Source of the DNA: a virus
Lineage: Duplodnaviria; Heunggongvirae; Uroviricota; Caudoviricetes
IMG/VR virus record: IMGVR_UViG_2609459861_000002
Span: 1-16,313 of that record
Reading direction: 5' to 3' (one strand)
DNA length: 16,313 bases
Below the pieces are notes generated by a model. The model ran no database searches, was not told where the DNA came from, and saw nothing but the letters and a program-made list of their open reading frames with translations. Of the stretch, positions 1 through 16,313 are shown in pieces (position 1 is the stretch's first letter; every line of letters begins with the position of its first letter). Both the position numbers and the translations under genes were made by a program.

Positions 1-1254
1 ATGCTGGAACAAATGGGCATTGCCGCGAAGCAAGCCTCGTATAAATTAGCGCAACTCTCCAGCCGCGAAAAAAATCGCGTGCTGGAAAAAATCGCCGATG
101 AACTGGAAGCACAAAGCGAAATCATCCTCAACGCTAACGCCCAGGATGTTGCTGACGCGCGAGCCAATGGCCTTAGCGAAGCGATGCTTGACCGTCTGGC
201 ACTGACGCCCGCACGGCTGAAAGGCATTGCCGACGATGTACGTCAGGTGTGCAACCTCGCCGATCCGGTGGGGCAGGTAATCGATGGCGGCGTACTGGAC
301 AGCGGCCTGCGTCTTGAGCGTCGTCGCGTACCGCTGGGGGTTATTGGCGTGATTTATGAAGCGCGCCCGAACGTGACGGTTGATGTCGCTTCGCTGTGCC
401 TGAAAACCGGTAATGCGGTGATCCTGCGCGGTGGCAAAGAAACGTGTCGCACTAACGCTGCAACGGTGGCGGTGATTCAGGACGCCCTGAAATCCTGCGG
501 CTTACCGGCGGGTGCCGTGCAGGCGATTGATAATCCTGACCGTGCGCTGGTCAGTGAAATGCTGCGTATGGATAAATACATCGACATGCTGATCCCGCGT
601 GGTGGCGCTGGTTTGCATAAACTGTGCCGTGAACAGTCGACAATCCCGGTGATCACAGGTGGTATAGGCGTATGCCATATTTACGTTGATGAAAGTGTAG
701 AGATCGCTGAAGCATTAAAAGTGATCGTCAACGCGAAAACTCAGCGTCCGAGCACATGTAATACGGTTGAAACGTTGCTGGTGAATAAAAACATCGCCGA
801 TAGCTTCCTGCCCGCATTAAGCAAACAAATGGCGGAAAGCGGCGTGACATTACACGCAGATGCAGCTGCACTGGCGCAGTTGCAGGCAGGCCCTGCGAAG
901 GTGGTTGCTGTTAAAGCCGAAGAGTATGACGATGAGTTTCTGTCATTAGATTTGAACGTCAAAATCGTCAGCGATCTTGACGATGCCATCGCCCATATTC
1001 GTGAACACGGCACACAACACTCCGATGCGATCCTGACCCGCGATATGCGCAACGCCCAGCGTTTTGTTAACGAAGTGGATTCGTCCGCTGTTTACGTTAA
1101 CGCCTCTACGCGTTTTACCGACGGCGGCCAGTTTGGTCTGGGTGCGGAAGTGGCGGTAAGCACACAAAAACTCCACGCGCGTGGCCCAATGGGGCTGGAA
1201 GCACTGACCACTTACAAGTGGATCGGCATTGGTGATTACACCATTCGTGCGTAA
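1..1254 (+). CDS. proA: gamma-glutamyl phosphate reductase (glutamate-5-semialdehyde dehydrogenase)
   Basis: Full-length 417-aa ORF; I recognise the translation as enterobacterial ProA. Window begins at its start codon. Confidence 0.97.
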
Positions 1255-1368
1255 ATAAAACCGGGTGATGCAAAAGTAGCCATTTGATTCACAAGGCCAT
1301 TGACGCATCGCCCGGTTAGTTTTAACCTTGCCCACCGTGATTCACGTTCGTGAACATGTCCTTTCAGG

Positions 1369-1444
1369 GCCGATATAGCTCAGTTGGTAGAGCAGCGCAT
1401 TCGTAATGCGAAGGTCGGAGGTTCGACTCCTCTTATCGGCACCA
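1369..1444 (+). tRNA. thrW: tRNA-Thr, anticodon CGU
   Basis: Cloverleaf readable by eye: acceptor GCCGATA/TATCGGC, D-arm GCTC..GAGC, anticodon stem GCGCA/TGCGA with loop TTCGTAA (anticodon CGT), T-arm GGAGG-TTCGACT-CCTCT, 3' CCA encoded. Sits directly after proA as thrW does in E. coli. Confidence 0.93.
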
Positions 1445-1458
1445 TTTAAATCAATAAG

Positions 1459-2622
1459 TTACACATCATTAGTACCTTCCTTATTTTTTGACTGGGACAA
1501 ATTTGGGACCGATGGGTTCAGGATCGAGTCTATTTGCCGTGCGTGTTCGGTAAGGTGATTAGGTGCGAGGTGAGCATATCGACGAACCATTTCGATAGAC
1601 TCCCAGCCTCCCATTTCCTGTAACACTGACAACGGGACACCGGCTTGAACCAGCCAACTTGCCCAGGTGTGTCTCAAGTCATGAAATCTGAAATCATCAA
1701 TACCAGCTCGTCTCAGCGCCGCTTTCCAGGCTGTGTTTGCGTCATACCGCATCTTCCTGACTGTTGGCGCTTTCGTTCCGTCTGGTTTGGTACAGCTTTC
1801 CTTGTACACAAATACCCAACGGTGATGATTCCCGATTTGTTTTTTCAATACGCGACATGCAGTATCATTCAGCGCAACGCCAATTGCGCGGTTTGATTTA
1901 CTCTCTTCCGGGTTTATCCATGCCACCCGGCGCTGCATATCTATTTGTTGCCATTCAAGGTTGATGATGTTCGAGCGTCTTAAGCCTGTTGCCAGTGCAA
2001 ATTCAACAACAGACTTTAATGGCTCCGGACATTCATCAATCAGCCTTTGTGCTTCATGGGGCTCCAGCCAGCGGATCCGTTTATTCTTTGGTTGAGGCAC
2101 TTTAATAATTGGTGCCTTATCCAGCATTTTCCATTCACGCTCTGCGGCTCTTAGTAGGGCCTTTATAAATGAAAGATGCGTAGCCTTCGTTGCAACGGAC
2201 GCTGGTTTTGGCGTGTATTCTGGAACAGGTTTCCCTTTTTTTCTGCATGCTTCTGCCCTGAGTTTCCAGTTTTCCTCATGACGCCGGTTCGTCATTTTCT
2301 GCATTGCTGAATAAATTTTTGATTCAGTGATGTCTCTTAGTTGCATCCCTGCGAAATGTTGAAGCCAGAATCCGATCCGGCTTTTGTCATCGTCCAGTGA
2401 TTTCTTATGTGCTTTCTCTTCGAGCCACCTGACACACGCTTCCTCAAACGTCATATCAGGTATTTCACCAAGTTTGCTGACCCGCCATGCTTCAGCCTTT
2501 AGCTTGTCATGGAGCTCTGTCGCCTGCCTTTTGTCCTTTGTTCCAAGAGACTGTTTAAATCTTTTACCGTTCGGCAATGTGAAACTGGCGTACCATATTT
2601 CACTTCTGCGGAAGAGTGACAT
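1459..2622 (-). CDS. int: phage tyrosine integrase (lambdoid Int family)
   Basis: 387-aa ORF beginning [27 protein letters not shown], which I recognise as the IntD/IntF-type prophage integrase of E. coli; C-terminal HDLRHTWAS (HxxR) and RRYAHL (catalytic Tyr region). Stop codon lies 15 nt from the tRNA CCA end. Confidence 0.93.
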
Positions 2623-2849
2623 TTTCTTTCCTCTGTTATGCCATCACCCGCGCTCACCTTGATAGTATGCAGCGGAGACTGAAGCGCCGCAATGCAGGCT
2701 TGTCGCGTTGTGAGGTAAGGAGATTTTGGTTTAGTGGGGTCTTTGCGTGTTGCCTGTAGGCGGCCTGTTCGTATCCAGTTGGTGGCGGTTGGTCTGGATA
2801 TCTTAAGAAACTGACAGGCCTCATCGAGTGTGAGGCTGTATGATTCCAT
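2499..2849 (-). CDS. xis: excisionase / AlpA-type helix-turn-helix protein
   Basis: HTH-like segment [29 protein letters not shown] at 2849 is preceded by GAGG with 5-nt spacing; the longer track ORF starts at an upstream GTG. Lies immediately upstream of int, and its 3' end overlaps the int 5' end by about 120 nt, so one of the two ends is uncertain. Confidence 0.65.
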
Positions 2850-3099
2850 GGTTACCTCTGCTTTTTGAACGCATGTCACGTAACTTCTTAATGTGTTCTG
2901 CCGTTTCGATCTCTTCTGCTATCCGATCTGCATCAGCTTTATTCACAGGTTCAAAGTCATGATTAAAGCGGAACATGCTGGCGATACATGTTCTGCCTTT
3001 TCGGATGTAGTGAACTTTGTTGTGGGTAGAACGCAGGATTTTGCAGGGAGTGCCGTGGTGGTCGACGTACCAGGTGTTAGGAAAAATGATTCTGAACAT
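2821..3099 (-). CDS. hypothetical phage protein (92 aa)
   Basis: ORF with protein-like composition; ATG at 3099 preceded by GAGGT at 5-nt spacing; overlaps the xis start by 29 nt as in compact phage operons. Family not recognised. Confidence 0.5.
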   Translation of the reverse strand: MFRIIFPNTWYVDHHGTPCKILRSTHNKVHYIRKGRTCIASMFRFNHDFEPVNKADADRIAEEIETAEHIKKLRDMRSKSRGNHGIIQPHTR

Positions 3100-3146
3100 T
3101 TTTACACCTCAGTTGGACGATGTTGAAATTTGCTGCTTTGAGGCCA

Positions 3147-3365
3147 TCACAGTCCCCATTGTTTGTTCTTAAGTTCGATCTCCTCCTGGCAACTTGCACA
3201 AGTCCGACAACCCTGAACAGCCAGGCGTCTTCGCTCATCTATCGGATCGCCACACTCACAACAATGAGTTGCGGATACAGTCTGGTAGTTCAGACGACGC
3301 ATTTTTATTGCTGTATTGCGCTGTAATTCTTCGATTTCTGATGCTGAATCAATGATGTCTGCCAT
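3147..3365 (-). CDS. TraR/DksA-family C4 zinc-finger protein
   Basis: 72-aa ORF with CCECGDPIDERRRLAVQGCRTCASC, i.e. CxxC-(17)-CxxC, at the C-terminus; size and motif spacing match phage and plasmid TraR homologues. Confidence 0.8.
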   Translation of the reverse strand: MADIIDSASEIEELQRNTAIKMRRLNYQTVSATHCCECGDPIDERRRLAVQGCRTCASCQEEIELKNKQWGL

Positions 3366-3418
3366 CTTCCATTAATCCCTGAATTGTTGGTTAATACGCT
3401 TGAGGATGAATGCGAACA

Positions 3419-3443
3419 ATAAAAAAGGAGCCTGTAGCTCCCT
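3419..3443 (-). terminator. candidate intrinsic terminator downstream of the 3464-3679 ORF
   Basis: On the minus-strand RNA: stem GGAGC/GCUCC (extendable by a G-U and an A-U pair), loop UACAG, followed by UUUUUUAUUG. Confidence 0.4.
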
Positions 3444-3463
3444 GATGATTTTGCTTTTCATGT

Positions 3464-3679
3464 TCACCGTTCCTTAAAGACGCCGTTTAACATGCCGATC
3501 GCCAGGCTTAAATGAGTCGGTGTGAATCCCATCAGCGTTACCGTTTCGCGGTGCTTCTTTAGTACGCTACGGCAAATGTCATCGACGTTTTTATCCGGAA
3601 ACTGCTGTCTGGCTTTTTTGATTTCAGAATTAGCCTGACGGGCAATGCTGCGAAGGGCGTTTTCGTGCTGAGGTGTCAT
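3464..3679 (-). CDS. hypothetical phage protein (about 71 aa, start uncertain)
   Basis: C-terminal 71 residues from MTPQHENALRSIARQ are protein-like; the upstream in-frame extension to 3778 is Cys/His-rich and less convincing. No strong SD at any candidate start. Confidence 0.4.
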   Translation of the reverse strand: MTPQHENALRSIARQANSEIKKARQQFPDKNVDDICRSVLKKHRETVTLMGFTPTHLSLAIGMLNGVFKER

Positions 3680-3755
3680 TGAACAAGTCCCATGTCGGCA
3701 AGCATAAGCACACAGAATATGAAGCCCGCTGCCAGAAAAATGCATTCCGTGGTTG

Positions 3756-4133
3756 TCATGCAGCCTCCCGACGGGCAAGAATCCTTGAGCCGAACGCCAT
3801 CAACTCTCCACGATCAACGGTCGTAAAGTGGCAGTGTGTACGGGGGTATGGGTGCCAGATAATGAGCATCGAACCTTTATTATTTCCACTGACGGGTTTC
3901 TCAGTGAGTGGGTTAATAAATGCCAGTCGTCCTGCCGTGATGAATCTGACCTCACTGGCGGTTTGTATCGCTTCATGAAACCATCCGACAGATGTGTCAG
4001 CAGGCAATAACATTACACATCCCACACTACTGAATTTGTTTTCAGTGGCTGCCTTTTTCACAAAAGGGGAAATATTGCTGTATGGTGGATTCAACCAGAC
4101 ATAACCAGAGGCATATCTGGCTGAAAGAGGGGG
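3756..4133 (-). pseudogene. phage N6-adenine DNA methyltransferase (Dam family), 5'-truncated
   Basis: Translation contains the NPPY catalytic motif followed by MLLPADTSVGWFH..EVRFI.GRL.F.NP, as in phage Dam-type methyltransferases. Only 13 codons precede NPPY before an in-frame stop at 4134-4136, and there is no ATG; the track start is a TTG at the NPPY codon. The N-terminal part expected in this family is absent. Confidence 0.6.
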
Positions 4134-4143
4134 TTATTAAGGC

Positions 4144-4506
4144 GTGAATACCTACAGTATCACATTACCCTGGCCTCCGAGCAATAATCGCTATTACCGC
4201 CATAATCGCGGGCGCACGCACGTCAGTGCAGAGGGGCAGGCATACCGCGATAACGTCGCCCGAATCATTAAAAGCGCAATGCTGGATATCGGCCTGGCTA
4301 TGCCTGTGAAAATCCGCATTGAGTGCCACATGCCGGATCGCCGTCGCCGTGACCTGGATAATCTGCAAAAAGCCGCTTTTGACGCACTCACTAAAGCAGG
4401 TTTCTGGCTGGATGATGCTCAGGTCGTTGATTACCGCGTTGTGAAGATGCCTGTTACCAAAGGTGGGAGGCTGGAACTGACCATCACCGAAATTGGGAAT
4501 GAATGA
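4144..4506 (+). CDS. rusA: crossover junction endodeoxyribonuclease RusA (Holliday junction resolvase)
   Basis: 120-aa [27 protein letters not shown]...; I recognise it as nearly identical to E. coli prophage RusA. GTG start with GAGGGGG upstream. Confidence 0.93.
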
Positions 4507-4643
4507 TGTTTGAGTTTTATATGGCAGAACTTCTTCGCCACCGCTGGGGGCATCTGCGCTTATATCGTTTCCCCGGTTCTGTTTTGACCGATTACCGAAT
4601 ACTGAAGAATTACGCCAAAACCCTGACAGGAGCAGGAGTATGA
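4503..4643 (+). CDS. ylcG: YlcG-like small phage protein (46 aa)
   Basis: Hand translation from the ATG overlapping the rusA stop (ATGA) gives [46 protein letters not shown], matching the small gene that follows rusA in DLP12-type prophages. Below the ORF-track size cutoff. Confidence 0.65.
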
Positions 4644-4728
4644 AGTCAGAGATAACAATCAACTAATACTGTTTTGTTGATTTTTGCTTGTAATTGGCGT
4701 TCTGGTCTGATTTTTGTGGAGTAAGTTG

Positions 4729-5112
4729 ATGCGTGATATTCAGATGGTTCTTGAGCGTTGGGGAGCGTGGGCGGCTAATAATCATGAAGATGTGACCTGG
4801 TCGTCCATTGCCGCCGGTTTTAAGGGATTAATTACTTCAAAAGTAAAATCTCGCCCGCAATGTTGTGACGATGACGCGATGATTATTTGCGGGTGCATGG
4901 CCCGTCTGAAAAAGAACAACAGCGATTTGCACGATTTATTAGTAGATTATTATGTAGTCGGTATGACATTCATGTCACTGGCAGGTAAGCATTGCTGCTC
5001 TGATGGTTATATCGGGAAAAGGTTACAGAAGGCTGAGGGCATAATTGAAGGGATGTTAATGGCATTAGATATCCGGTTAGAGATGGATATCGTTGTTAAT
5101 AACTCTAATTAA
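4729..5112 (+). CDS. late-gene antiterminator Q (Q82/QuuD type)
   Basis: 127 aa from the ATG at 4729 ([22 protein letters not shown]...), with Cys clusters [12 protein letters not shown] and HCC typical of the Q zinc-binding fold; sits between the rusA/ylcG nin remnant and the lysis genes. Confidence 0.85.
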
Positions 5113-5145
5113 TATGCCAATTGTTTACTAAAAATTATTAAAAAT

Positions 5146-5163
5146 GGGGCGTTGAGACGCCCC
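5146..5163 (-). terminator. intrinsic terminator downstream of the porin gene
   Basis: Stem GGGGCG/CGCCCC with 6-nt loop; on the minus strand it is followed by AUUUUUAAUAAUUUUU. The plus-strand side is A-rich, so it is not a plus-strand terminator. Confidence 0.5.
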
Positions 5164-5301
5164 CAAAAATAAAGGGTAATATATAACAGAAGGTTTATAT
5201 AGTTAGAAGCAAGGTTGTGCTTCTAAAGGAAGGGGTTGGGGGGAGCCCTTTATATGGGGGGGAGGCACCGCCCCCCGCAACATATCTTTTTCGTAATCAG
5301 A

Positions 5302-6399
5302 TTAGAACTGGTAAACCAGACCTACAGCAACGATGTCATCAGTGCTTACACCGAGTGCTTTAGTGAAGTCATTTTTGTCAAGCAGGTTGATTTTGTAATC
5401 AACGAAAGTAGACATATTTTTGTTGAAGTAATAGGTTGCACCTACATCAACATATTTGACTAAGTCCTGATCGCCCCATACTCCAAGATCCTTACCTTTA
5501 GATTGCAGGTAAGCAACGGACGGACGCAGACCGAAATCGAACTGATATTGTGCAACAGCTTCGAAGTTTTGGGCTTTATTAGCAACGAAGTGATCAGCAA
5601 ATACAGTCATATTCTGGGTTTCAGAATAGGTAGTGGCCAGGTAAATGTTGTTAGCGTCATATTTCAGACCTGCGGCCCAAACTTCTGCATTTTTACCGGA
5701 AGCAAATACTTCAGGAAGAACTTTCCCTGCATTAACTTGAGTGTCGGTACGATCAGATTTCGCATAAGTTGCACCGATACCGAATCCTTCGTATTCATAG
5801 GTAGCAGAGAAACCGAAGCCATCACCGTTACCTTCAGTGTAGTTATCGAAATCGCTACGATCGTTTTTGCCTTGGTACTGAGCAGCAAAGTTCAGACCAT
5901 CAACCAGACCAAAGAAGTCGTTGTTACGATAGGTTGCAACACCAGTTGCACGTTGAGTCATGAACACGTCGGTTTGAGTCCAAGTGTCACCACCGAATTC
6001 TGGCAGGACGTCAGTCCACGCACCGATGTCGTATGCTACACCGTAGTTACGGCCGTAATCGATGGAGCCGTAGTCACCGAATTTCAGGCCAGCGAAGGCA
6101 AGACGGGTTTTATCTTTGGAGGAACCTTGAGATTCAGCGCGGTTGCCTTTGAATTCATATTCCCACTGACCGAAACCAGTCAGTTGATCGTTGATTTGGG
6201 TTTCACCTTTGAAGCCAAGACGGGCATAAGTAGTATCACCATCATCTGCATCATTAGAGGAGAAGTAGTGCTTAGCATTAACTTTCCCGTACAGATCCAG
6301 CTTGTTACTGTCTTTATTATAAATTTCAGCTGCCTGAGCAGACATCGCCATCAGTACTGATGCAGCTACAGCAGAAATTGCCACTGTTAATTTTTTCAT
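5302..6399 (-). CDS. nmpC: outer-membrane general porin, prophage-encoded (NmpC/Lc/OmpC family)
   Basis: 365-aa ORF with signal peptide [30 protein letters not shown], porin-like Gly/Tyr/Asp-rich beta-barrel composition and C-terminal YQF. I recognise the N-terminal mature sequence as the NmpC/Lc-type phage porin. Intact, with no IS disruption. Confidence 0.93.
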
Positions 6400-6940
6400 C
6401 GTGAGCCCTTTTTTTTGAACTATTATTAAAAAATGATGTCACTGCGCGATAAATATTCATCTAATCAATGTGATTATTTCAAGATGTAAGTTTTGGTTTC
6501 TCGTTTGATTTGTGAAGTAGATCTCTATTTTTATCTGAACTTTTTTCTATCGAATCCTATTCATAGCTCTTGGCTGAATAAAAATAAATCTATTAGCCAA
6601 TTTATATTAACGGCTGTTATTTATAAGTGCTCTATAATTTGAAGATTCAATTTAAATCGGCTAAAAATAACACTGGAAATTATTTGTTAGTTATTTGTTG
6701 AGGTTTTCTTATGTATTTGTGGTGGTGTTTTGAACACTCGGTAGCATTCTCATAAATATCATTCAGTGGTTTACGTACGTAAAAAATTGGTTATGCTGTT
6801 AAGAGTGGTTACTTCGTCACACAGCTTAAACCCGCCGTCGAGCTGGTTTTTCCATTTTTTGAGTCTCGATATTAGCTGATAACTCAATACCTGAGTTATT
6901 CACTGACTCCGAGTCTGTTACGTTTCTGCTTTTTTGCGAT
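6400..6940. promoter_or_regulatory. AT-rich upstream region of the porin gene; may also hold plus-strand late-operon signals
   Basis: About 540 bp of strongly AT-rich non-coding DNA with A/T tracts, of the kind found upstream of enterobacterial porin genes. No specific sites assigned. Confidence 0.3.
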
Positions 6941-6988
6941 ACGTTGTATTCCCTCAATTTACACCCGCTTTGTCTGCGAGGTGGGGTT

Positions 6989-7204
6989 ATGAAATCCATG
7001 GATAAGTTAACAACGGGTGTCGCCTATGGCACCTCAGCAGGTAGTGCCGGTTACTGGTTTTTACAGCTGCTCGATAAAGTCACGCCCTCACAGTGGGCGG
7101 CAATAGGTGTGCTGGGTAGTCTGGTATTTGGCTTGCTGACGTACCTGACAAACCTTTATTTCAAGATTAAAGAAGATAAGCGCAAGGCTGCGAGAGGTGA
7201 ATAA
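6989..7204 (+). CDS. class II holin (phage 21 S-type pinholin) with dual-start motif
   Basis: 71 aa, [26 protein letters not shown]...: two predicted TMDs, Met1-Lys2-Ser3-Met4 dual start, charged C-terminus; GAGGTGGGG SD 2-10 nt upstream. The longer track ORF starts at an upstream TTG. Confidence 0.9.
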
Positions 7205-7701
7205 TGCCTCCATCATTACGAAAAGCAGTTGCTGCTGCTATTGGTGGCGGAGCAATTGCTATAGCATCAGTGTTAATCACTGGCCCAAGTGGTAACGATG
7301 GTCTGGAAGGTGTCAGCTACATACCATACAAAGATATTGTTGGTGTATGGACCGTATGTCACGGGCATACAGGAAAAGACATCATGCTCGGTAAAACGTA
7401 TACCAAAGCAGAATGCAAAGCACTCTTGAATAAAGACCTTGCCACTGTCGCCAGACAAATTAACCCATACATCGAAGTCGATATACCGGAAACAACGCGC
7501 GGCGCTCTTTACTCATTCGTTTACAACGTGGGTGCTGGCAATTTCAGAACATCGACGCTTCTTCGCAAAATAAACCAGGGCGATATCAAAGGCGCATGTG
7601 ATCAGTTACGTCGCTGGACATATGCTGGCGGTAAGCAATGGAAAGGTCTCATGACTCGTCGTGAGATTGAGCGTGAAATCTGTTTGTGGGGTCAGCAATG
7701 A
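7204..7701 (+). CDS. SAR endolysin (T4-lysozyme-fold muramidase, phage 21 R-type)
   Basis: 165 aa; N-terminal Gly/Ala-rich weakly hydrophobic SAR segment [20 protein letters not shown] followed by the lysozyme motif GLEG..Y.D..G..T; start overlaps the holin stop (TAATG). Confidence 0.93.
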
Positions 7702-8159
7702 ACAGAGTAACCGCGATTATCTCCGCTCTGGTTATCTGCATCATCGTCGGCCTGTCATGGGCTGTTAATCATTACCGTGATAACGCCATTACCTACAAAG
7801 CCCAGCGCGACAAAAATGCCAGAGAACTGAAGCTGGCGAACGCGGCAATTACTGACATGCAGATGCGTCAGCGTGATGTTGCTGCGCTCGATGCAAAATA
7901 CACGAAGGAGTTAGCTGATGCGAAAGCTGAAAATGATGCTCTGCGTGATGATGTTGCCGCTGGTCGTCGTCGGTTGCACATCAAAGCAGTCTGTCAGTCA
8001 GTGCGTGAAGCCACCACCGCCTCCGGCGTGGATAATGCAGCCTCCCCCCGACTGGCAGACACCGCTGAACGGGATTATTTCACCCTCAGAGAGAGGCTGA
8101 TCACTATGCAAAAACAACTGGAAGGAACCCAGAAGTATATTAATGAGCAGTGCAGATAG
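7698..8159 (+). CDS. Rz i-spanin
   Basis: ATG at 7698 overlaps the endolysin stop (ATGA); N-terminal [21 protein letters not shown] then a charged coiled-coil-like periplasmic domain; closely resembles lambda Rz. Confidence 0.9.
7918..8100 (+). CDS. Rz1 o-spanin lipoprotein (embedded in Rz, +1 frame)
   Basis: 60-aa ORF wholly inside Rz; lipobox LVVVGC, proline-rich mature region [13 protein letters not shown]. Confidence 0.85.
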
Positions 8160-8190
8160 AGCTGCCCATATCGATGGGCAACTCATGCAA

Positions 8191-8484
8191 TTATTGTGAG
8201 CAATACACACGCGCTTCCAGCGGAGTATAAATGCCTAAAGTAATAAAACCGAGCAATCCATTTACGAATGTTTGCTGGGTTTCTGTTTTAACAACATTTT
8301 CTGCGCCGCCACAAATTTTGGCTGCATCAACAGTTTTCTCCTGTCCAATTCCCGAAACGAAGAAATGATGGGTGATGGTTTCCTTTGGTGTTACTGCTGT
8401 CGGTTTGTTTCCAACAGTAAACGTCTGTTGAGCACATCCTGTAATAAGCATTGCCAGAGCGGCAGAAAACAACATTTTTTTCAT
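8191..8484 (-). CDS. bor: Bor lipoprotein (serum-resistance-associated moron)
   Basis: 97 aa from MKKMLFSAALAMLITGC (lipobox ITGC); I recognise it as lambda Bor-like. Opposite orientation to the lysis genes, as in lambda. Confidence 0.9.
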   Translation of the reverse strand: MKKMLFSAALAMLITGCAQQTFTVGNKPTAVTPKETITHHFFVSGIGQEKTVDAAKICGGAENVVKTETQQTFVNGLLGFITLGIYTPLEARVYCSQ

Positions 8485-9341
8485 CTTATTATCCTGTATT
8501 GTTAAAAACAGCAGAATCCTATGTGACAACAATTAAACGATAGTTAAATGGATTGATGAAAATTAAAACTATATAGGTGTACGGTCAGACTATTGGAGGT
8601 AGTCTGGATTTGAATGTCAGTGTGTTGTCGGCATTATGGCAATGCAATTTGGATAAAGCGGGGATTAAAAAGATAGAGGCGAGCCGGTCAGGTAGAAATG
8701 AATCAGGCTCAAAGTGAAGCGGAAAAGGTCTTTGGCACAAACTGATGCTGCCATAATTACAGCCTGATGACTTGTGGAATGAAACATGTTGAACCTCCTT
8801 AATTGATGTTATTCGAGTGAGGAAGGCATTCTGTCCTCCTATACTGTCCAGTAAATCAAACAGGAAGCTTGTCTCACGTGTGAGACAAGCCTCTCCATTA
8901 GCGAGTTGTATTGATCACAACTCTTCAAAGAATTCATTACTGGGTAGATGAAAATAGTTTCACGATGAATGGAGGAGGCTATGTTGGTGGCTTCTTCATT
9001 GGAGTACATATGCCCCCACGAACCCCAAAAACCTGCCGTGTTCGCGGCTACCGCAATACCACCACAGATCCGTCAGGCTATTGCAAAAGCCACAAAAGCG
9101 AAGGCTGGAAGCAATACAAGCCGGGCCAGTCCTGTCATCAGCGCGGTTATGGTTCGCGGGGTTGTCCCTCATGCTCGCCAGTCCTGTGCGGGGGGGGGAA
9201 GAAACAGGACACTCACACAGATTTTTGTGGGTCGATGCTATTCCTTTCTGGATTATCCCGATGCCATTCATGCAAGGGCTGTATCAGACGTTCGTCATGG
9301 CTGTCAGGCTGACGGGTCCTCCCGGTGGGGGGGCCTGCCAC

Positions 9342-9528
9342 GGGGCGGGAGCGTCGCGGAAAAAGGCTAGTTTTTGCATTTTTATCGGCCACCATCATCT
9401 TTACATCTTATTGATTATTAATGATTATTTGTTTTTTGTATGTCGAATTGCGTGTTTTTTGTTCGACATCGAACGCGTTTTCTTAAAGTTGTTCGCACGA
9501 TGCATGTTTAAAGCTCTCCGGAGGAAAT
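9342..9528. other. candidate cos region (cosN-like core followed by A/T-rich cosB-like segment)
   Basis: CGGGGCGGGAGCGTCGCGG at 9341-9359 matches the lambda cosN core as I remember it (CGGGGCGGCGACCTCGCGG) in both flanks, differing in the central 5 nt; followed by an A/T-rich stretch with repeated TTCGA/TCGAA motifs, directly upstream of the small terminase gene. Confidence 0.4.
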
Positions 9529-10020
9529 ATGGATCATGAGTTGAAAAACCTGGTGCTGAATATTAATCAACTGGCGGCTTTATCTGGTCTGCACCGCCAG
9601 ACTGTCGTGGCAAGACTGAAAAACATTCGTCCCGCTGGTGGACATGACAAACTCAAGCTATACCGGTTGACCGATATTCTGACTGAATTTATGGGGTTAC
9701 CACCGCCGGTTGCTGAGGGCGAAATGGATCCACATGAACGCAAAGCCTGGTATCAGTCTGAACGTGAGCGTCTTAAGTTCGAACAGGAAACGGCACAACT
9801 CATTCCGGCCAGTGATGTCAGACGGGAGTTTGCCATCTGGGCAAAAGCGGTCGTGCAGGTGCTGGAGACATTACCGGATATTCTGGAACGTGACTGCGGC
9901 CTGCAGCCTGCTGCTGTGAGCCGTGTTCAGTCCATTATTGATGATCTGCGCGATCAGATAGCCCTGCGGGTGACCGAAGCAGGTGCGGATGATGAGGAGG
10001 AATTACAGCAGGAGGAGTAA
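9529..10020 (+). CDS. terminase small subunit (Nu1 family)
   Basis: 163-aa ORF with N-terminal HTH-like segment LNINQLAALSGLHRQTVVARLKNI and acidic C-terminus; stop overlaps the start of the large-terminase ORF (TAATG), the standard Nu1-A arrangement. Confidence 0.8.
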   Translation: MDHELKNLVLNINQLAALSGLHRQTVVARLKNIRPAGGHDKLKLYRLTDILTEFMGLPPPVAEGEMDPHERKAWYQSERERLKFEQETAQLIPASDVRREFAIWAKAVVQVLETLPDILERDCGLQPAAVSRVQSIIDDLRDQIALRVTEAGADDEEELQQEE

Positions 10021-11312
10021 TGCTGAATCAGGAAACCGCAAAGGCAGCACGAACCGATTCAGGTTATATCCTTCGCGCACCGAGACGAATGCGGGTTGCT
10101 GATGCCGTTGCTCAGTATATGCGAGTGCCCATGGGGGCCGGGAACTCAGTCCCGTGGGATCCGCTGGTGGCACCGTATGTTCTTGAGCCGATGAACTGCC
10201 TGGCCTCGCGTGAATACGACGCAGTGATATTTGTTGGTCCGGCACGAACCGGCAAGACTATCGGCCTGATTGACGGCTGGGTGATTTACAACGTGATTTG
10301 CGATCCTGCGGATATGCTGATCATTCAGATGACGGAGGAAAAAGCCCGCGAACACTCCAAAAAACGACTTGCCAGAACGTTTCGCGTCAGCCCGGAAGTG
10401 GTCAGTCGCCTGAGTCCGAACAAAAATGACAACAACGTTTATGACAGAACATTCCTTGCTGGCAACTACCTGAAAATCGGCTGGCCGTCAGTCAATATCA
10501 TGTCCTCATCAGATTATAAATGCGTGGCGCTGACGGATTATGACCGTTTTCCGGAAGATATTGATGGCGAGGGGGATGCCTTCTCTCTTGCCTCAAAACG
10601 TACCACCACATTTATGTCCAGTGGTATGACGCTGGTGGAGAGTTCCCCCGGCAGGGATGTGAAGGATGTGAAATGGCGACGGACTTCACCGCATGAGGCT
10701 CCACCAACCACGGGGATACTGTCGCTCTATAACCGTGGCGATCGCCGTCGCTGGTACTGGCCCTGTCCACACTGTGGTGAGTATTTTCAGCCCTGCGGCG
10801 ATGTGGTTGCTGGTTTCCGTGATATTGCCGATCCCGTGCTGGCAAGTGAGGCGGCTTATATTCAGTGTCCTTCCTGTTCAGGACGGATTATGCCTGAACA
10901 AAAACGTGAGCTGAACGGACGTGGGGTCTGGTTGCGGGATGGTGAATCCATCAATGCGGATGGCAGTCGTTATGGTGATCCCCGACGCTCACGTATTGCG
11001 TCATTCTGGATTCCACCCATTATCTTTAACGGAATAGCGTATAGCGATCCGGGAAGTGGTAATAACCCGGGAGGTACAAGATACACGGGTTATGGTTTTG
11101 AAGTTCGCAAAAACGGTGTATTAATCGCATCCAGAGAAACTAAAGGGGCCATTCCCGGTAGCTACAGTGCGGTTATTGATATGCCGAGTGGCAGGGGAAG
11201 CGTCACTCTGGAGTTTAAGGTTTTCCATAAAGGCAATCAGTGGGCAGGTAATATCACCGACTGTACGGTGATTGTGACCAAAAAAGCTGCTTCCGGCATC
11301 AGTATTCGTTGA
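10020..11312 (+). pseudogene. terminase large subunit (gpA family), N-terminal ATPase region only, fused in frame to about 100 unrelated codons
   Basis: Residues 1 to about 330 carry gpA-like landmarks (P-loop VGPARTGKT, CPHCGEYFQ zinc motif, GVWLRDG). Lambda gpA is about 640 aa; here the ORF ends at 430 aa and its last 100 residues do not resemble terminase. A hairpin-plus-T6 terminator and lom follow, which is the position of the J 3' end in lambda. Confidence 0.7.
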
Positions 11313-11333
11313 AGTTGTTATAACCCATATAAG

Positions 11334-11357
11334 GGCACCAGAAATGGTGCCTTTTTT
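11334..11357 (+). terminator. intrinsic terminator
   Basis: GGCACCA-GAAA-TGGTGCC stem-loop followed by TTTTTT. Confidence 0.7.
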
Positions 11358-11381
11358 ATTGCAGAAAAGCGAGAGGTAATT

Positions 11382-11981
11382 ATGCGTAAACTTTATGCCG
11401 CCATTTTGTCCGCAGCCATTTGTCTGGCCGTATCCGGTGCGCCTGCATGGGCATCTGAACATCAGTCCACGCTGAGCGCGGGGTATCTTCATGCCCGGAC
11501 CAACGTTCCCGGCAGCGATGATCTGAACGGGATTAACGTGAAATACCGTTATGAGTTTACGGACACACTGGGGCTGGTGACGTCATTCAGCTATGCAGGA
11601 GACAAGAATCGCCAGCTGACCCATTACAGCGATACCCGCTGGCATGAAGATTCCGTTCGTAACCGCTGGTTCAGCGTAATGGCGGGGCCGTCTGTGCGCG
11701 TGAATGAATGGTTCAGCGCGTATGCGATGGCGGGTATGGCTTACAGCCGTGTTTCGACTTTTTCCGGGGATTATCTCCGCGTAACTGACAACAAGGGGAA
11801 AACGCATGATGTGCTGACCGGAAGTGATGACGGTCGCCACAGCAACACGTCTCTGGCGTGGGGGGCTGGCGTGCAGTTTAACCCGACCGAATCCGTGGCC
11901 ATTGATATTGCTTATGAAGGCTCCGGCAGTGGCGACTGGCGCACTGACGGTTTCATCGTGGGGGTCGGTTATAAATTCTGA
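11382..11981 (+). CDS. lom: Lom outer-membrane protein (Ail/Lom/PagC family)
   Basis: 199 aa with signal peptide ending AWA/SEH and C-terminal IDIAYEGSGSGDWRTDGFIVGVGYKF, which I recall as identical to the lambda Lom C-terminus. Confidence 0.92.
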   Translation: MRKLYAAILSAAICLAVSGAPAWASEHQSTLSAGYLHARTNVPGSDDLNGINVKYRYEFTDTLGLVTSFSYAGDKNRQLTHYSDTRWHEDSVRNRWFSVMAGPSVRVNEWFSAYAMAGMAYSRVSTFSGDYLRVTDNKGKTHDVLTGSDDGRHSNTSLAWGAGVQFNPTESVAIDIAYEGSGSGDWRTDGFIVGVGYKF

Positions 11982-12008
11982 TTAGCCAGGTAACACAGTG
12001 TTATGACA

Positions 12009-12034
12009 GCCCGCCGGTTCAGGCGGGCTTTTTT
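12009..12034 (+). terminator. intrinsic terminator downstream of lom
   Basis: GCCCGCC-GGTTCA-GGCGGGC stem-loop followed by TTTTTT. Confidence 0.75.
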
Positions 12035-12045
12035 GTGGGGGGAAT

Positions 12046-15000
12046 ATGGCAGTAAAGATTTCAGGTGTACTGAAAGACGGCGCAGGTAAACCGGTACAGA
12101 ACTGCACAATCCAGCTGAAAGCAAAACGTAACAGCACCACGGTGGTGGCGAACACGGTGGCCTCAGAAAATCCGGATGAAGCCGGGCGTTACAGCATGGA
12201 CGTTGAGTACGGTCAGTACAGCGTTATTCTGTTGGTGGAAGGCTTCCCGCCATCGCATGCCGGGACCATCACCGTGTATGAAGACTCACAACCGGGTACG
12301 CTGAATGATTTTCTCGGTGCCATGACGGAGGATGATGTCCATCCGGAGGCACTGCGCCGCTTTGAACTGATGGTGGAAGAGGTGGCGCGTAACGCGTCCG
12401 CAGTGGCGCAGAACACAGCAGCCGCGAAGAAGTCAGCCAGCGATGCCGGCACATCAGCCCGTGAGGCGGCAACCCGTGCAACTGATGCTGCAGGCTCAGC
12501 ACGTGCAGCCAGCACGTCAGCCGGACAGGCCGCTTCGTCGGCTCAGTCAGCGTCTTCCAGCGCAGGAACGGCATCAACAAAGGCCACTGAAGCATCAAAA
12601 AGTGCTGCCGCTGCAGAGTCTTCAAAAAGCGCGGCAGCCACCAGTGCCGGTGCAGCGAAAACGTCAGAAACGAATGCCGCAGCATCACAAAAATCTGCGG
12701 CCACTTCTGCATCCACCGCGACCACGAAAGCGTCAGAAGCTGCCACCTCAGCCCGGGATGCGTCGGCTTCAAAAGTGGCGGCAAAATCATCAGAAACGAG
12801 CGCAGCCTCGAGCGCCGGCAGTGCAGCTTCCTCGGCAACGGCGGCAGGAAATTCCGCGAAGGCCGCAAAAACGTCTGAGATGAATGCGGATAACAGCGCA
12901 CAGGCGGCAGCAGACTCACAAACTGCATCGGCAAATTCCGCGACAGCAGCCAAAAAATCAGAAACCAACGCGAAAAATAGTGAGTCAGCAGCAAAGGTCA
13001 GCGAAACCAACGCTAAAGCGTCAGAGAACAAGGCGAAAGAATATCTCGACAAGGTCGGGGGACTCGTCAGCCCGATGACGCAATACGATTGGCCCGTTGT
13101 TACTGGTAATGAGTCTTTTTACATAAAGATCGCGAAACTTTCCGATCCCGGAAGCAACAATTGCCATGTAACGCTAATGGTTACTAACGGCGGTGACTAC
13201 AGCTCCCCTTACGGAAACATTGACTTTATCGAGATCTCGGCGCGCGGTCTGCCTTCTTCGCTTACTGCTGATAATGTATCTCGTTACCTGAGTATACGCC
13301 GTTTAGGGCCAACCGGGCTAATCAATAGCATGCAAATGCGTTACGGCCTGGTTAAAGATGATGGCTTTATTGAGGTTTGGGCCTTCCAGCGTGCATTTAT
13401 CAACGGCGCAAAGGTTGCGGTACTGGCGCAGACGGCACGCACGGAATTATACATTCCAGACGGATTTGTTAAGCAAACCGCCGCGCCTTCTGGATATGTT
13501 GAAAGCCCCGTTGTAAGGATTTACGACCAGTTAAACAAGCCGACTAAAGCAGATTTGGGCCTTTCTAATGCTATGCTTACAGGCGCTTTTGGTCTTGGCG
13601 GTAGCGGTCTTGTTTTGGATGGTAAAATGACCGATAAGGAACTACTACAAGAGCTAAGGGCGAAAGGTGGGTGTTTCTGGAGGTCAGGAAAACCAACAGG
13701 TAGCGAATCAACAATTTTCAGCCACGGTTCTGGTATATTCTCGCGGTGCGGCGATACGTGGTCAGCTATTAATATCGATTACGAAAGCGGTAGAGTAAAG
13801 ATTTACTCTAGTAACGATAATAGACTCAACAATGGTACTTTTAACATAAATGAGCTATACGGAACCAAATACAAGCCGTCGAAATCGGATGTTGGACTTG
13901 GTAACGTAACTAACGATGCGCAGGTGAAAAAATCCGGCGACATTATGTCAGGTGATCTGTCGATCACTAAAGCAACACCTTCACTATACCTGCGTTCAAA
14001 AAGTGGAACCGCCCATGTATGGTTCCAAAATGAGGATCAGTCGGAACGCGGCGTTATTTTTGCGCCTACAAATACTGATACGCTTGGCGAAGTTCACATC
14101 AGGGCTAAAAACGCAAAAGGTCAATCAAGTGGTGATTTTATTGTTCGTCACGACGGGATGGTTGAAGCCCGTGATCTCACATTAGCGGGTAAAACTAAAG
14201 GCGCAAAAGCAGAATTTGCAAACACAAGCACTAGCTCCGATGATACTACGGTAAGCATAAAAGGATCTCAGCATACTCCTCTGGTTTTAACGCGCAACAA
14301 CACAATTAAAAATTTATCCATTGGGTTTAAGGTTGATGACGTTGACCAAAAATATCTCGGCATATACGGTGACGGTGATTTGTATTTTGGTGGTTATTCT
14401 GACCACACAAAAAACAGCAAAGTAATTACACAAGCAATACTCGATAGCGGGGTAACGGTAGGCGGCAAAACAACATTTTCTGACCTTGCCACATTTAACG
14501 CAGGTATGTCTGGGCCTATCGAGCCGGAAGCCATTGAAGGCATGACTATCGATCTTAATGACCTTATCATTAAGTTCACGGATAAAGGTTCAGTTAAATA
14601 CTATCACTGCAAAACTGCCGGAGGCGGTTCGAATATTACCAATAAGCCTGACGGCGTAGGCGGCAACTTTTTGCTTCGTGTAGAGTCAATTCGTAAGGTT
14701 AGTGATTCAGATTATATAAACATGCAAACGCTGATTAGCGGCGACAAAGGACGCGTGCATGTTCGTTTTGTTACTAATGGTAATTGGACAGCATGGAGCG
14801 AGCATGTTGTTTCAGGATGGAATCAGGATGTGACCGTCAGGTCGTTAACCTCGACGACTCCATCAAAATTAGGCGGCGGGCGTGTTGATGTGCTGGGGAG
14901 TACGTCAGATTACAGTAGTATGAATTGTGCTGTGCGCGGTGTTGATAGCACTGGAACCAATTCGGCGTGGTCAGTAGGTACATCGAAAAACACGGGAAAA

Positions 15001-15804
15001 ATGTTGTGCCTTAAAAACCACAGAAGCAGCGCTCAAGTGCTGTTAAATGGCGATGATGGCGCGGTGCAACTACTAAGCGGTACTGTCAACGGTGCTACAG
15101 CACAGGCGCTAACCATCAACAAAGATGAGGTTAACTCAACTGCTGATTTAGTAATTAGAAAACAGTCAGGGACTGGCAATCGTTTTGTTTTAAAGAACGC
15201 AGGTAATGCAGAACTACCGTTTAACATCAGTGTATGGGGTTCAAGTGATCGACAAAACGTTTTTGAGGTTGGAACGTCTGCTGCGTATCTGTTTTATGCG
15301 CAAAGAACGCCAGCAGGCCAGTTGTTTGATGTAAATGGCGCTATTAATTGCACAACGCTGAATCAGTCATCAGACCGCGACCTTAAAGACGATATTCTCG
15401 TTATCAGCGACGCGACGAAAGCAATCCGCAAAATGAACGGGTACACCTACACGCTCAAGGAAAACGGCCTTCCTTATGCTGGCGTTATTGCACAGGAAGT
15501 AATGGAGGCGCTACCGGAAGCCGTAGGATCGTTTACTCGTTACGGTGAAGAATTGCAGGGTCCGACCATTGATGGCAACGAGCTACGCGAAGAAACGCGT
15601 TACCTCAATGTTGATTATGCGGCGGTGACTGGTTTACTTGTCCAGGTCGCCCGTGAAACAGATGATCGCGTTACCGCGCTGGAAGAGGAAAACACAACGC
15701 TACGTCAAAATCTGGCAACAGCAGACACCCGGATCAGCACTCTGGAAAATCAGGTAAGCGAACTGGTTGCACTTGTCCGGCAGTTAACAGGAAGCGAACA
15801 TTGA
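12046..15804 (+). CDS. stf: mosaic side tail fibre: lambda Stf-like N-terminus, divergent central domain, C-terminal intramolecular chaperone (peptidase S74-like) domain
   Basis: 1252-aa ORF. N-terminus MAVKISGVLKDGAGKPVQNCTIQLKA... is near-identical to lambda Stf as I recall it, followed by an Ala/Ser/Thr/Lys-rich repetitive shaft. Central region, from about residue 337, is unrelated. C-terminal 143 aa begin SS/DRDLK (Ser and Lys at i+5) and end in a heptad-like coiled coil, as in self-cleaving chaperone domains of endosialidase and T5 pb1-type fibres. Confidence 0.9.
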   Translation: MAVKISGVLKDGAGKPVQNCTIQLKAKRNSTTVVANTVASENPDEAGRYSMDVEYGQYSVILLVEGFPPSHAGTITVYEDSQPGTLNDFLGAMTEDDVHPEALRRFELMVEEVARNASAVAQNTAAAKKSASDAGTSAREAATRATDAAGSARAASTSAGQAASSAQSASSSAGTASTKATEASKSAAAAESSKSAAATSAGAAKTSETNAAASQKSAATSASTATTKASEAATSARDASASKVAAKSSETSAASSAGSAASSATAAGNSAKAAKTSEMNADNSAQAAADSQTASANSATAAKKSETNAKNSESAAKVSETNAKASENKAKEYLDKVGGLVSPMTQYDWPVVTGNESFYIKIAKLSDPGSNNCHVTLMVTNGGDYSSPYGNIDFIEISARGLPSSLTADNVSRYLSIRRLGPTGLINSMQMRYGLVKDDGFIEVWAFQRAFINGAKVAVLAQTARTELYIPDGFVKQTAAPSGYVESPVVRIYDQLNKPTKADLGLSNAMLTGAFGLGGSGLVLDGKMTDKELLQELRAKGGCFWRSGKPTGSESTIFSHGSGIFSRCGDTWSAINIDYESGRVKIYSSNDNRLNNGTFNINELYGTKYKPSKSDVGLGNVTNDAQVKKSGDIMSGDLSITKATPSLYLRSKSGTAHVWFQNEDQSERGVIFAPTNTDTLGEVHIRAKNAKGQSSGDFIVRHDGMVEARDLTLAGKTKGAKAEFANTSTSSDDTTVSIKGSQHTPLVLTRNNTIKNLSIGFKVDDVDQKYLGIYGDGDLYFGGYSDHTKNSKVITQAILDSGVTVGGKTTFSDLATFNAGMSGPIEPEAIEGMTIDLNDLIIKFTDKGSVKYYHCKTAGGGSNITNKPDGVGGNFLLRVESIRKVSDSDYINMQTLISGDKGRVHVRFVTNGNWTAWSEHVVSGWNQDVTVRSLTSTTPSKLGGGRVDVLGSTSDYSSMNCAVRGVDSTGTNSAWSVGTSKNTGKMLCLKNHRSSAQVLLNGDDGAVQLLSGTVNGATAQALTINKDEVNSTADLVIRKQSGTGNRFVLKNAGNAELPFNISVWGSSDRQNVFEVGTSAAYLFYAQRTPAGQLFDVNGAINCTTLNQSSDRDLKDDILVISDATKAIRKMNGYTYTLKENGLPYAGVIAQEVMEALPEAVGSFTRYGEELQGPTIDGNELREETRYLNVDYAAVTGLLVQVARETDDRVTALEEENTTLRQNLATADTRISTLENQVSELVALVRQLTGSEH
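12400..13050 (+). repeat. degenerate tandem coding repeats (Ala/Ser/Thr/Lys-rich shaft of the tail fibre)
   Basis: Recurring motifs KTSETNA, KSSETSA, KTSEMNA, KKSETNA, KVSETNA in the translation; GC-rich, and it generates long spurious ORFs in other frames and on the opposite strand. Confidence 0.6.
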
Positions 15805-15984
15805 TATCCTTCAAGCTCTGAAGGAGGCTGTTCCCGGTACGTTCAGACTGTTGTTGAGCTGGAGATCGCAACGGAGGAAGAAACCTCATTGCTGGAAGCC
15901 TGGAAAAAATATCGGGTGTTGCTGAACCGTGTTAATACAACAACTGCACCGGATATTGAGTGGCCAGAAGAACCTATAGGGTAA
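15805..15984 (+). pseudogene. tail fibre assembly protein (Tfa), 3' remnant without start codon
   Basis: The 60 codons immediately after the fibre TGA, in the same frame, end ...[36 protein letters not shown], which reads as a Tfa C-terminus; there is no ATG/GTG with an SD in this frame. Confidence 0.5.
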
Positions 15985-16054
15985 ATTCGTAATGATTACC
16001 TAAATACGTTATTCTTTTGTTCAAAAAGTGATTTTGCTATAGGTAGGGAGTATG

Positions 16055-16313
16055 GGTGATGCTGCCAACTTACTGATTTAGTGTATGATGGTGTTTTTGA
16101 GGTGCTCCAGTGGCTTCTGTTTCTATCAGCTGTCCCTCCTGTTCAGCTACTGACGGGGTGGTGCGTAACGGCAAAAGCACCGCCGGACATCAGCGCTATC
16201 TCTGCTCTCACTGCCGTAAAACATGGCAACTGCAGTTCACTTACACCGCTTCTCAACCCGGTACGCACCAGAAAATCATTGATATGGCCATGAATGGCGT
16301 TGGATGCCGGGCA
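16055..16313 (+). mobile_element. IS1 insertion sequence, left end (partial, runs off the window)
   Basis: From GGTGATGCTGCCAACTTACTGAT (the IS1 terminal inverted repeat) onward the sequence matches IS1 as I remember it, through the insA 5' region. Confidence 0.92.
16110..16313 (+). CDS. insA: IS1 InsA (partial, 5' portion)
   Basis: GTG start at 16110; hand translation gives [68 protein letters not shown], the InsA N-terminus. Missed by the ORF track because it has no stop inside the window. Confidence 0.88.

Follow-up and report, generated by a model that had tools for sequence, protein, structure and literature searches.

The 16,313-nt stretch of DNA analysed here (IMG/VR virus record IMGVR_UViG_2609459861_000002, positions 1 to 16,313; hereafter the window) contains a defective prophage in which one open reading frame (ORF), at nucleotides 10020–11312, begins as a gene for the large terminase subunit (terL) and ends as J, the central tail fibre gene of lambdoid phages. 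The locus therefore raises the question of how the two genes came to be joined in one frame, and why at this particular nucleotide. We found that the ORF is almost certainly a deletion scar within a cryptic lambdoid prophage located at thrW next to proA. Scars of this class are already known; the new point is that the left breakpoint coincides with the attachment (att) site of a satellite.

The chimeric ORF and its two parents

The ORF, read from an ATG on the plus strand, encodes 430 aa, of which residues 1–330 are from TerL and the last 100 from J. Residues 1–330 (10020–11011, plus strand) are 100% identical to the intact 700-aa GpA-family TerL of prophages in E. coli, Shigella and E. fergusonii. 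This part contains the complete ATPase domain (Pfam GpA_ATPase at residues 41–304, profile positions 2–247 of 247, E 6e-72), with the Walker A motif GPARTGKT at residues 73–80, and lacks the nuclease domain (PF20454), which occupies residues 326–644 of 700 in the intact TerL P0026; accordingly, a Pfam search of the 430-aa product gave no match to GpA_nuclease. The product is, as far as can be predicted, a truncated TerL derivative and not a working terminase. It is preceded by an intact small terminase subunit-like gene (9529–10020, plus strand; Pfam DUF1441, E 4.6e-44, profile positions 1–146 of 147), the stop codon of which overlaps the start codon of the chimera (TAATG; AGGAGGAGTAATG at 10008–10022), and the motif AGGAGGAG precedes the chimera ATG at this terS-terL overlap. 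A preliminary description, made from the letters of the window, had called the N-terminal part lambda gpA-like; this holds for the GpA family and does not extend to lambda's own Nu1/A type, as the terminase is a mEp460/HK97-like GpA with a DUF1441 small subunit.

The remainder of the ORF (11012–11312, plus strand) consists of the last 100 codons and the stop codon of J, read in the native J frame. Its DNA shares 96.8% identity with the J-lom region of phage ev099 and 99.9% with that of E. coli EJN001, Pfam detected Ig_GpJ_C at residues 350–429 (profile positions 52–134 of 135, E 9e-12), and in a search against solved structures residues 329–429 aligned with the C-terminal end of the gpJ chains 9wca_J (E 9.7e-12) and 8xcj_Z, the latter from lambda, while no terminase structure was matched by the chimera sequence. 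An origin of the C-terminus in another terminase family, or in a protein other than J, is ruled out by these three comparisons. In the intact J of EJN001 (1165 aa), the receptor-binding domain spans residues 1029–1164; the chimera holds about 100 of these 136 residues, the first 37 being missing. The N-terminal and central domains found by Pfam in the EJN001 protein (Phage-tail_3, FNIII-A, Ig_J and Phage_Tail_Tip) are absent from the chimera. These results bear out the earlier proposals that the ORF is gpA-like for about 330 residues, that its 100 C-terminal residues are those of J, and that the in-frame junction leaves a 430-aa chimera with an intact ATPase region, the last at the level of profiles. 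As also described earlier, the ORF ends just before a terminator-like hairpin with a T run (11331–11354, in a feature spanning 11331–11360, plus strand), which normally lies 3' of J and is likewise placed in ev099, PhiR47_1 and EJN001, and before lom (11382–11981).

The junction and the size of the loss

Megablast of nucleotides 9400–12400 returned two non-overlapping sets of matches, one on the terL side extending to nt 11011 and the other on the J side starting from nt 11010. The former came from phages of the mEp460/PhiR47 group, where the gene is annotated as the large terminase, and the latter from the J-lom-stf regions of ev099, cdtI and Stx phages. A three-way alignment of the window, intact terL and J placed the deletion junction at 11010–11011, where both parents have the two nucleotides AT. 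The terL parent reads TCATTCTGGAT before the join and GGAGGGTCC after it, the J parent reads AAATCATTAT followed by TCC(A/G)CCCATT, and the window reads TCATTCTGGAT followed by TCCACCCATT. The switch, earlier placed near nt 11010–11030, is thus mapped to codon 331 (ATT, 11010–11012), which spans the join.

On the left, nucleotides 9400–11011 (1612 nt) are 100% identical to strain NCTC11129, where terL is complete, with portal and capsid genes after it. On the right, identity to E. coli EJN001 reaches 99.9% across 1034 nt and, in an ungapped alignment of 4956 nt (11010–15965), 99.2%, and EJN001 and EBJ001 are the best matches to the right side of the window among 5426 complete E. coli genomes. 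The deletion from mid-terminase to the 3' end of J, removing the head and tail gene set, had been the simplest interpretation in the preliminary description, and comparison with intact relatives confirmed that everything between the two points is absent: the 3' part of terL, a small head-tail gene, the portal, protease-capsid, head completion and tail genes including that for the tail tube, as well as the tape measure gene, M, L, K, I and the first 1065 codons of J. Relative to the intact phage PhiR47_1, 16,539 bp have been lost; measured against EJN001 the loss is 27,241 bp, of which 10,609 bp belong to a satellite (see below), so that 16.5–16.6 kb of helper DNA are gone. The complete identity (100%) between the terL part and intact copies dates the deletion event as recent.

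A satellite integrated at codon 331 of terL

In EJN001, terL is annotated as broken after codon 331 and resumes 10.6 kb later (locus L009, 13990–24611), the break being at the same nucleotide as the left breakpoint of the window. The intervening satellite carries, in order, genes for a P4-type tyrosine integrase with a P4-type arm-binding domain, a small helix-turn-helix (HTH) protein, Bro-N, a D5-type primase-helicase, a single-stranded DNA-binding protein (SSB), a ClpP-capsid fusion and DUF1441, all co-oriented with terL. Its left flank reads CTGGATGTAGGGT and its right flank CTGGATGGAGGGT; the att core is CTGGATG(G/T)AGGGT.

That this is a genuine att site is shown by several results. The attL junction was present in 90 of the 5426 complete genomes, and the 331-aa TerL truncated by the satellite (ending FWM) forms a cluster of 230 sequences on 291 contigs. 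In IMG/VR, 37 of 38 close relatives of the integrase are encoded downstream of a terL fragment, mostly 198 nt away, with a few at about 150–210 nt as judged from the end of the tblastn match. Wherever the attL junction was displayed it ended at the same TGGATG, even though the terL alleles shared only 63–99% identity, and the reciprocal attR junction was found in 14 of the 14 recovered. The junction of an off-target copy also contains TTTGGATG. All partners have only (C/T)TGGATG in common, and attL invariably has T at position 8 and attR invariably G, which places the exchange within those 6–7 nt.

Such an off-target copy, in IMG/VR (L083, about 1120–1200), adjoins a gene for a LysR-type regulator; its flank, TTTTTGGATG followed by TAGGGT, shows that TGGATG is retained at secondary sites.

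The left part of the att core, CTGGAT, occupies nucleotides 11006–11011 of the window, as defined by attL and attR of EJN001 and by the IMG/VR junctions (37 attL and 14 attR). The window reads TCATTCTGGAT followed by TCC, attL reads TCATTCTGGATGTAGGGT followed by the satellite, and the empty site attB reads TCATTCTGGATGGAGGGTCC; the terL homology of the window therefore ends after CTGG, A or T, that is, inside the crossover segment TGGATG. The left breakpoint does not look arbitrary. A satellite-bearing prophage exists in which the terS-terL left part is 99.6% identical to that of the window. Strain MB06233 has a satellite-bearing prophage of this type with a deletion running from 193 nt inside the satellite to the middle of lom, which shows that such copies can indeed decay through deletions reaching towards lom.

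The satellite of EJN001 resembles the helper-embedded phage-inducible chromosomal islands (HE-PICIs) of Tommasini, Mageeney and Williams 2023 (PMC10111431) in several respects: i) it is co-oriented with, and inserted in, a late gene of the helper, which it disrupts without supplying a replacement copy, ii) it has the same order of integration, Bro, replication and late zones (integrase, Bro-N, primase and captured late genes), and iii) relatives of its integrase with 52–56% identity are also found downstream of tail genes, and off-target copies exist. In contrast, the terminase sites of HE-PICIs lie in genes of the Terminase_1 family (A:Terminase_1:132 and :245/246), whereas the EJN001 element uses a GpA-family site; no such site was present in the supplementary files of PMC10111431, and terL codon 331 is not in the published list of HE-PICI sites. 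Published HE-PICI traits also include a doubled TGTATTGC motif at fixed distances on either side of the attP centre and an integrase of the 11capE clade (PMC10111431). The doubled TGTATTGC arm motif is absent from the EJN001 element, which has instead a doubled motif of the TTATCGC type about 95–125 nt from the core. The window itself differs from an HE-PICI locus in containing no satellite and only the left half of the target site.

Breakpoints in other terL fusion alleles

Other TerL fusion alleles, with the first 330 residues at least 99% identical to the window's, were found by protein search with the chimera, and their junction DNA was aligned. Three of them, P0003, P0002 and P0057, are independent alleles that have their breakpoints no more than 21 nt from the core and differ in their right partners. 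In P0003 the terL part ends after CTGGAT, as in the window, and continues in mid-J from a site itself reading CTGGAT, with 12 of the 17 nt to the left also matching; this allele looks like a product of secondary-site recombination. In P0002 the break lies 1 nt beyond the 13-bp att block, with the 3' part of stf as the partner, and in P0057 it lies 8 nt beyond this block, with the tape-measure gene joined via a 4-nt overlap. For 22 independent alleles, two or more fell in the 7-nt segment in 0.8% of uniform draws, and four or more fell within 21 nt in 0.07%.

Two further clusters of breakpoints were found in the part of terL that is deleted from the window. At terL nt 1281–1284 (break GTGGTTCAGGT/A/AC) there are five alleles from two terL allele families, joined to J twice, to capsid once and to stf twice, and at nt 1391–1393 (break CCAGCTA/T/C) there are four, with portal, lom, tape measure and one unknown partner; the loci involved are L001, L015, L016, L110, L114 and L115, and L018, L019, L020 and L109. 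Altogether, 19 pairs of alleles lie within 3 nt of each other, a number reached in none of 20,000 uniform draws. These clusters mark either the targets of unseen elements or another cause of fragile sites, and such sharp recurrence at two further terL positions, whatever lies behind it, shows prophage decay to be less random than is commonly supposed. Of the six IMG/VR matches to the second-site pattern, three (L111–L113) were dropped as chance matches in unrelated genes. For a possible element at terL codon 464, the tail of P0004 could be followed only to the end of its contig, and the junction occurred in none of the complete genomes. An inspection by eye for sites of Pin/Gin DNA invertases, as a cause of the hot spots, gave no convincing match to the gix/hix consensus.

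A recurrent junction was also noticed in the tape-measure gene H, at about 29889–29890 of PhiR47_1 (L004), in P0012, L109 and P0057 (L014). Two terL deletions have their right end at this position, and a second deletion, directed towards lom, has its left end there; it may be another recurrent breakpoint.

Origin of the deletion

We are inclined to attribute the start of the deletion to the satellite integrase. The ancestor would have carried, or would have been visited by, the 10.6-kb helper-embedded satellite, and cleavage or an aborted strand exchange by the integrase at the core, in the attL of a resident satellite or in an empty attB, would have supplied the left end, which would then have been joined illegitimately, with an overlap of 2 nt, to a random and unremarkable position in J. 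In an ancestor with a resident satellite the deletion may have spanned 27 kb instead of about 16.6 kb, the loss of 27.2 kb being made up of 10.6 kb of satellite and 16.6 kb of helper. In the textbook chemistry of tyrosine recombinases, the cleaved strand stays covalently bound to the enzyme by its 3' end. Such a bond would protect the left end from resection and would yield a nucleotide-sharp left end and scattered right ends.

Deletions of lambda promoted by Int and ending at att were reportedly obtained by Parkinson and Huskey and by Davis and Parkinson (J Mol Biol, 1971). They too reportedly have one end fixed at the att crossover while the other varies, and P0003, with a J partner that shares CTGGAT, fits them well. 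The window differs from them in that its J partner shares only AT with the core, and in that the recombinase would be that of the satellite and not that of the prophage losing DNA. Integration at secondary sites is documented (Shimada et al. 1975, as cited in PMC6379469), a passage of PMC10111431, citing Williams 2002, associates PICI integrations with deletions that start at a fixed att position, and many helpers of embedded satellites look truncated (PMC10111431).

The principal rival is ordinary illegitimate (microhomology) recombination independent of any satellite, the match to the att core being due to chance or to some local fragility of terL; we judge it the less probable of the two and still a serious contender. 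It is favoured by an overlap of only 2 nt, by a J partner without similarity to att, by losses of the same module with other breakpoints elsewhere (ZH177, Ec-U11, EC27, W409, APEC O78 and F247; see below), by the breakpoint clusters at terL nt 1281–1284 and 1391–1393, where no insertion is known, and by the identity of the window's terL allele to unoccupied copies. However, a random endpoint would fall in a given 7-nt segment of this 2.1-kb gene with a probability of only about 0.3%, two independent alleles break in this segment and two more within 15 nt, and that very nucleotide is where the satellite sits in the right flank's nearest relative.

A number of observations weigh against the involvement of the integrase, and several of them favour ordinary recombination. 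In a scan of the whole deleted interval with the attB and attP patterns, the J side of the junction matched at only 4–5 of 20 positions, equal to the background mean (5.1 ± 1.9), and it contains no TGGATG. It was rejected as a secondary att site, so that a clean integrase reaction with such a site is not supported for the window allele; this result lowers the case for clean site-specific recombination, not that for an integrase-initiated break. No satellite DNA is left in the window. The window terL allele (GRIMPEQ) is common in unoccupied genes, with copies identical to it, whereas the abundant satellite-truncated 331-aa product has GRILPEQ. The predicted reciprocal junction, consisting of the left part of J and the left end of the satellite, was found in no complete E. 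coli genome, and no further allele broken exactly after CTGGAT was found in IMG/VR (0 matches) or in JGI metagenomes (one unrelated chance match). The allele sample was drawn with the window's own protein as query and is blind to breaks before residue 330; without the window, three or more of 21 alleles in 21 nt gives p ~0.007 by a Poisson estimate. Finally, no inserted element was found at terL nt 1281–1284 or 1391–1393, so that another cause of terL hot spots exists or remains hidden, and if these clusters reflect such a cause of fragility, the satellite argument at the first site is weaker.

The J site was also examined as a recurrent breakpoint or insertion site, with 0 matches in IMG/VR for both flank patterns. 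A two-step route, through damage on the attR side next to a resident satellite, was considered and dropped, as it is left without support by the intact terL at all 14 recovered attR flanks.

A tentative and rather doubtful extension is that att sites of helper-embedded satellites in late genes serve generally as starting points of large deletions, making helper prophages cryptic. In that case a satellite integrase, and not random decay, would have grounded this prophage. The clusters at terL nt 1281–1284 and 1391–1393 and the tape-measure junction would then mark the targets of unseen recombinases or elements, and the lost circle, consisting of the satellite and the region from terL 3' through J 5', would correspond, on the donor side, to the 'late gene capture' described in elongated PICIs. 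Were integrases to initiate deletions in this way, satellites would permanently disarm their helpers in the chromosome, beyond their parasitism during induction, and part of prophage 'domestication' would have a mechanistic cause. A full-text term search of the literature found no description of deletions anchored at the att sites of helper-embedded satellites; of the papers returned, only the founding one treats the subject.

Fate of the fusion protein and reality of the junction

With terS, the coupling signal and the Q gene all retained, expression of the late operon would probably allow the fusion to be translated. It is very likely a functionless relic, as it lacks the nuclease and the portal-binding end, and the J piece is an incomplete domain. 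The alternative that it is a selected functional protein with a dominant-negative or anti-packaging role, e.g. a nuclease-less ATPase that binds the small subunit, blocks the packaging of related superinfecting phages and is stabilised by the J fragment as a tail, is most improbable. The preserved frame, the intact terS-terL coupling signal and ATPase domain, and the existence of other in-frame TerL fusions (P0001, P0002, P0003, P0057, P0061, P0063, P0067 and the 780-aa protein of W409) are in its favour, and prophage-encoded defences that target the terminase have reportedly been described (bioRxiv 10.1101/2025.02.27.640495). However, the exact protein occurs in only two assemblies and the junction in 0 of the 5426 complete genomes, partners and breakpoints vary between cases, the first 37 residues of the J domain are missing, and there is no divergence from intact terL from which selection could be read. 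Among the alleles found by DNA search, the fusions are in frame in the window and W409 and out of frame in ZH177, EC27, L109 and L110. An excess of in-frame fusions was accordingly rejected as a sign of selection, this frequency of about one in three being that expected by chance.

The identical 430-aa product is encoded in GCA_000704205.1, a 47-kb NCBI draft contig identical to the window and ending in IS1, and in the Logan assembly of SRR1186800, which has 11 differences from the window, all away from the junction. That two prophage regions were wrongly joined in a draft is hardly credible: the source is indeed a draft contig ending in IS1, but the second assembly has the same junction with small differences elsewhere, the two parents share only 2 nt at the join and so offer no repeat by which contigs could be mis-joined, on either side of the join the sequence is collinear with real prophages, and closed genomes contain analogous junctions.

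Of the differences in SRR1186800, ten are substitutions within 41 nt (5233–5273, in the interval separating Q from the porin gene's 3' end) and one is a substitution elsewhere. The 41 nt may represent a variable segment or a patch introduced by recombination.

Comparable deletions in other E. coli prophages

By itself the scar is ordinary, belonging to a known type of decay in cryptic lambdoid prophages, and losses of this class are a well-known form of prophage degeneration (PMC6379469). Independent deletions from terminase to J or to lom, with different junctions, were found in other E. coli strains. In ZH177 the deletion runs from terL nt 1282 to J, in Ec-U11 from 3' of the gene following terL to J, and in EC27 from terL to lom. 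W409 has, at the same thrW locus (L008, 12624–14966), residues 1–493 of a lambda-type gpA in frame with the last 287 aa of J, encoding a 780-aa protein; the left half of this prophage is 99% identical to that of the window, and its terminase::J fusion is independent. APEC O78 has a fragment of lambda-type gpA joined to a J fragment, while in F247 such a gpA fragment is followed by a fragment of the major capsid protein, a short fragment and lom. In the Rac prophage of K-12, a tape-measure fragment (ynaA) runs straight into lomR-stfR-tfaR.

The window prophage shares with the cryptic lambdoid prophages of K-12 (Rac, DLP12 and Qin) an integrase for a tRNA or chromosomal site, the retention of Q, porin, lysis cassette, bor and the small-terminase gene, and the jump to lom-stf-tfa. 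The fusion is one more case in which virion genes were lost while lom, stf, the lysis genes and the porin were kept. It differs in that the junction of terL codon 330/331 with J codon 1066 is recorded only in this strain lineage, the fusion is in frame and the flanks show no decay. In addition, the terminase is of the DUF1441/GpA mEp460 type, though the left half of the prophage is DLP12-like.

The surrounding prophage

The defective prophage lies at thrW beside proA, with tRNA-Thr at 1369–1444. It retains the integrase, RusA, Q, porin, holin, lysozyme, Rz, bor, DUF1441, lom and stf genes, and no portal, capsid, tube or tape-measure gene was found in it. With an integrase for a tRNA site, regulatory and lysis genes and no assembly genes, the element has the predicted gene content of a cryptic (defective) lambdoid prophage. 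Downstream of the chimera, lom is intact and encodes a 199-aa outer-membrane beta-barrel protein of the Ail/Lom type (11382–11981, plus strand; Pfam Ail_Lom 1–199 of 199, E 4e-121); it is followed on its 3' side by a second terminator (12008–12029) and by an intact stf gene for a side tail fibre of 1252 aa (12046–15804, plus strand), with a Pfam phage_tail_N domain and a C-terminal Peptidase_S74 chaperone domain. Directly after stf, nucleotides 16081–16313 contain an IS1 InsA frame, and the expected tail fibre assembly gene was not seen within the window.

The early region (2622–4729) is nearly gone, with an HTH gene, DUF4222, a TraR-like protein gene and a fragment of a Dam methylase gene between the integrase gene and rusA-Q; its reduction to such small remnants indicates that at least one more large deletion shaped this prophage. 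The left genome end of phage mEp460 maps to nt 9504 of the window (region about 9490–9510), indicating that the cos region and the small-terminase gene were kept though nothing is left to package. Two cargo genes are placed as in DLP12: an intact porin gene of the OmpC/NmpC type (5302–6399, minus strand) between Q and the lysis genes, and an intact lipoprotein gene of the bor/iss type (8191–8532, minus strand) after Rz.

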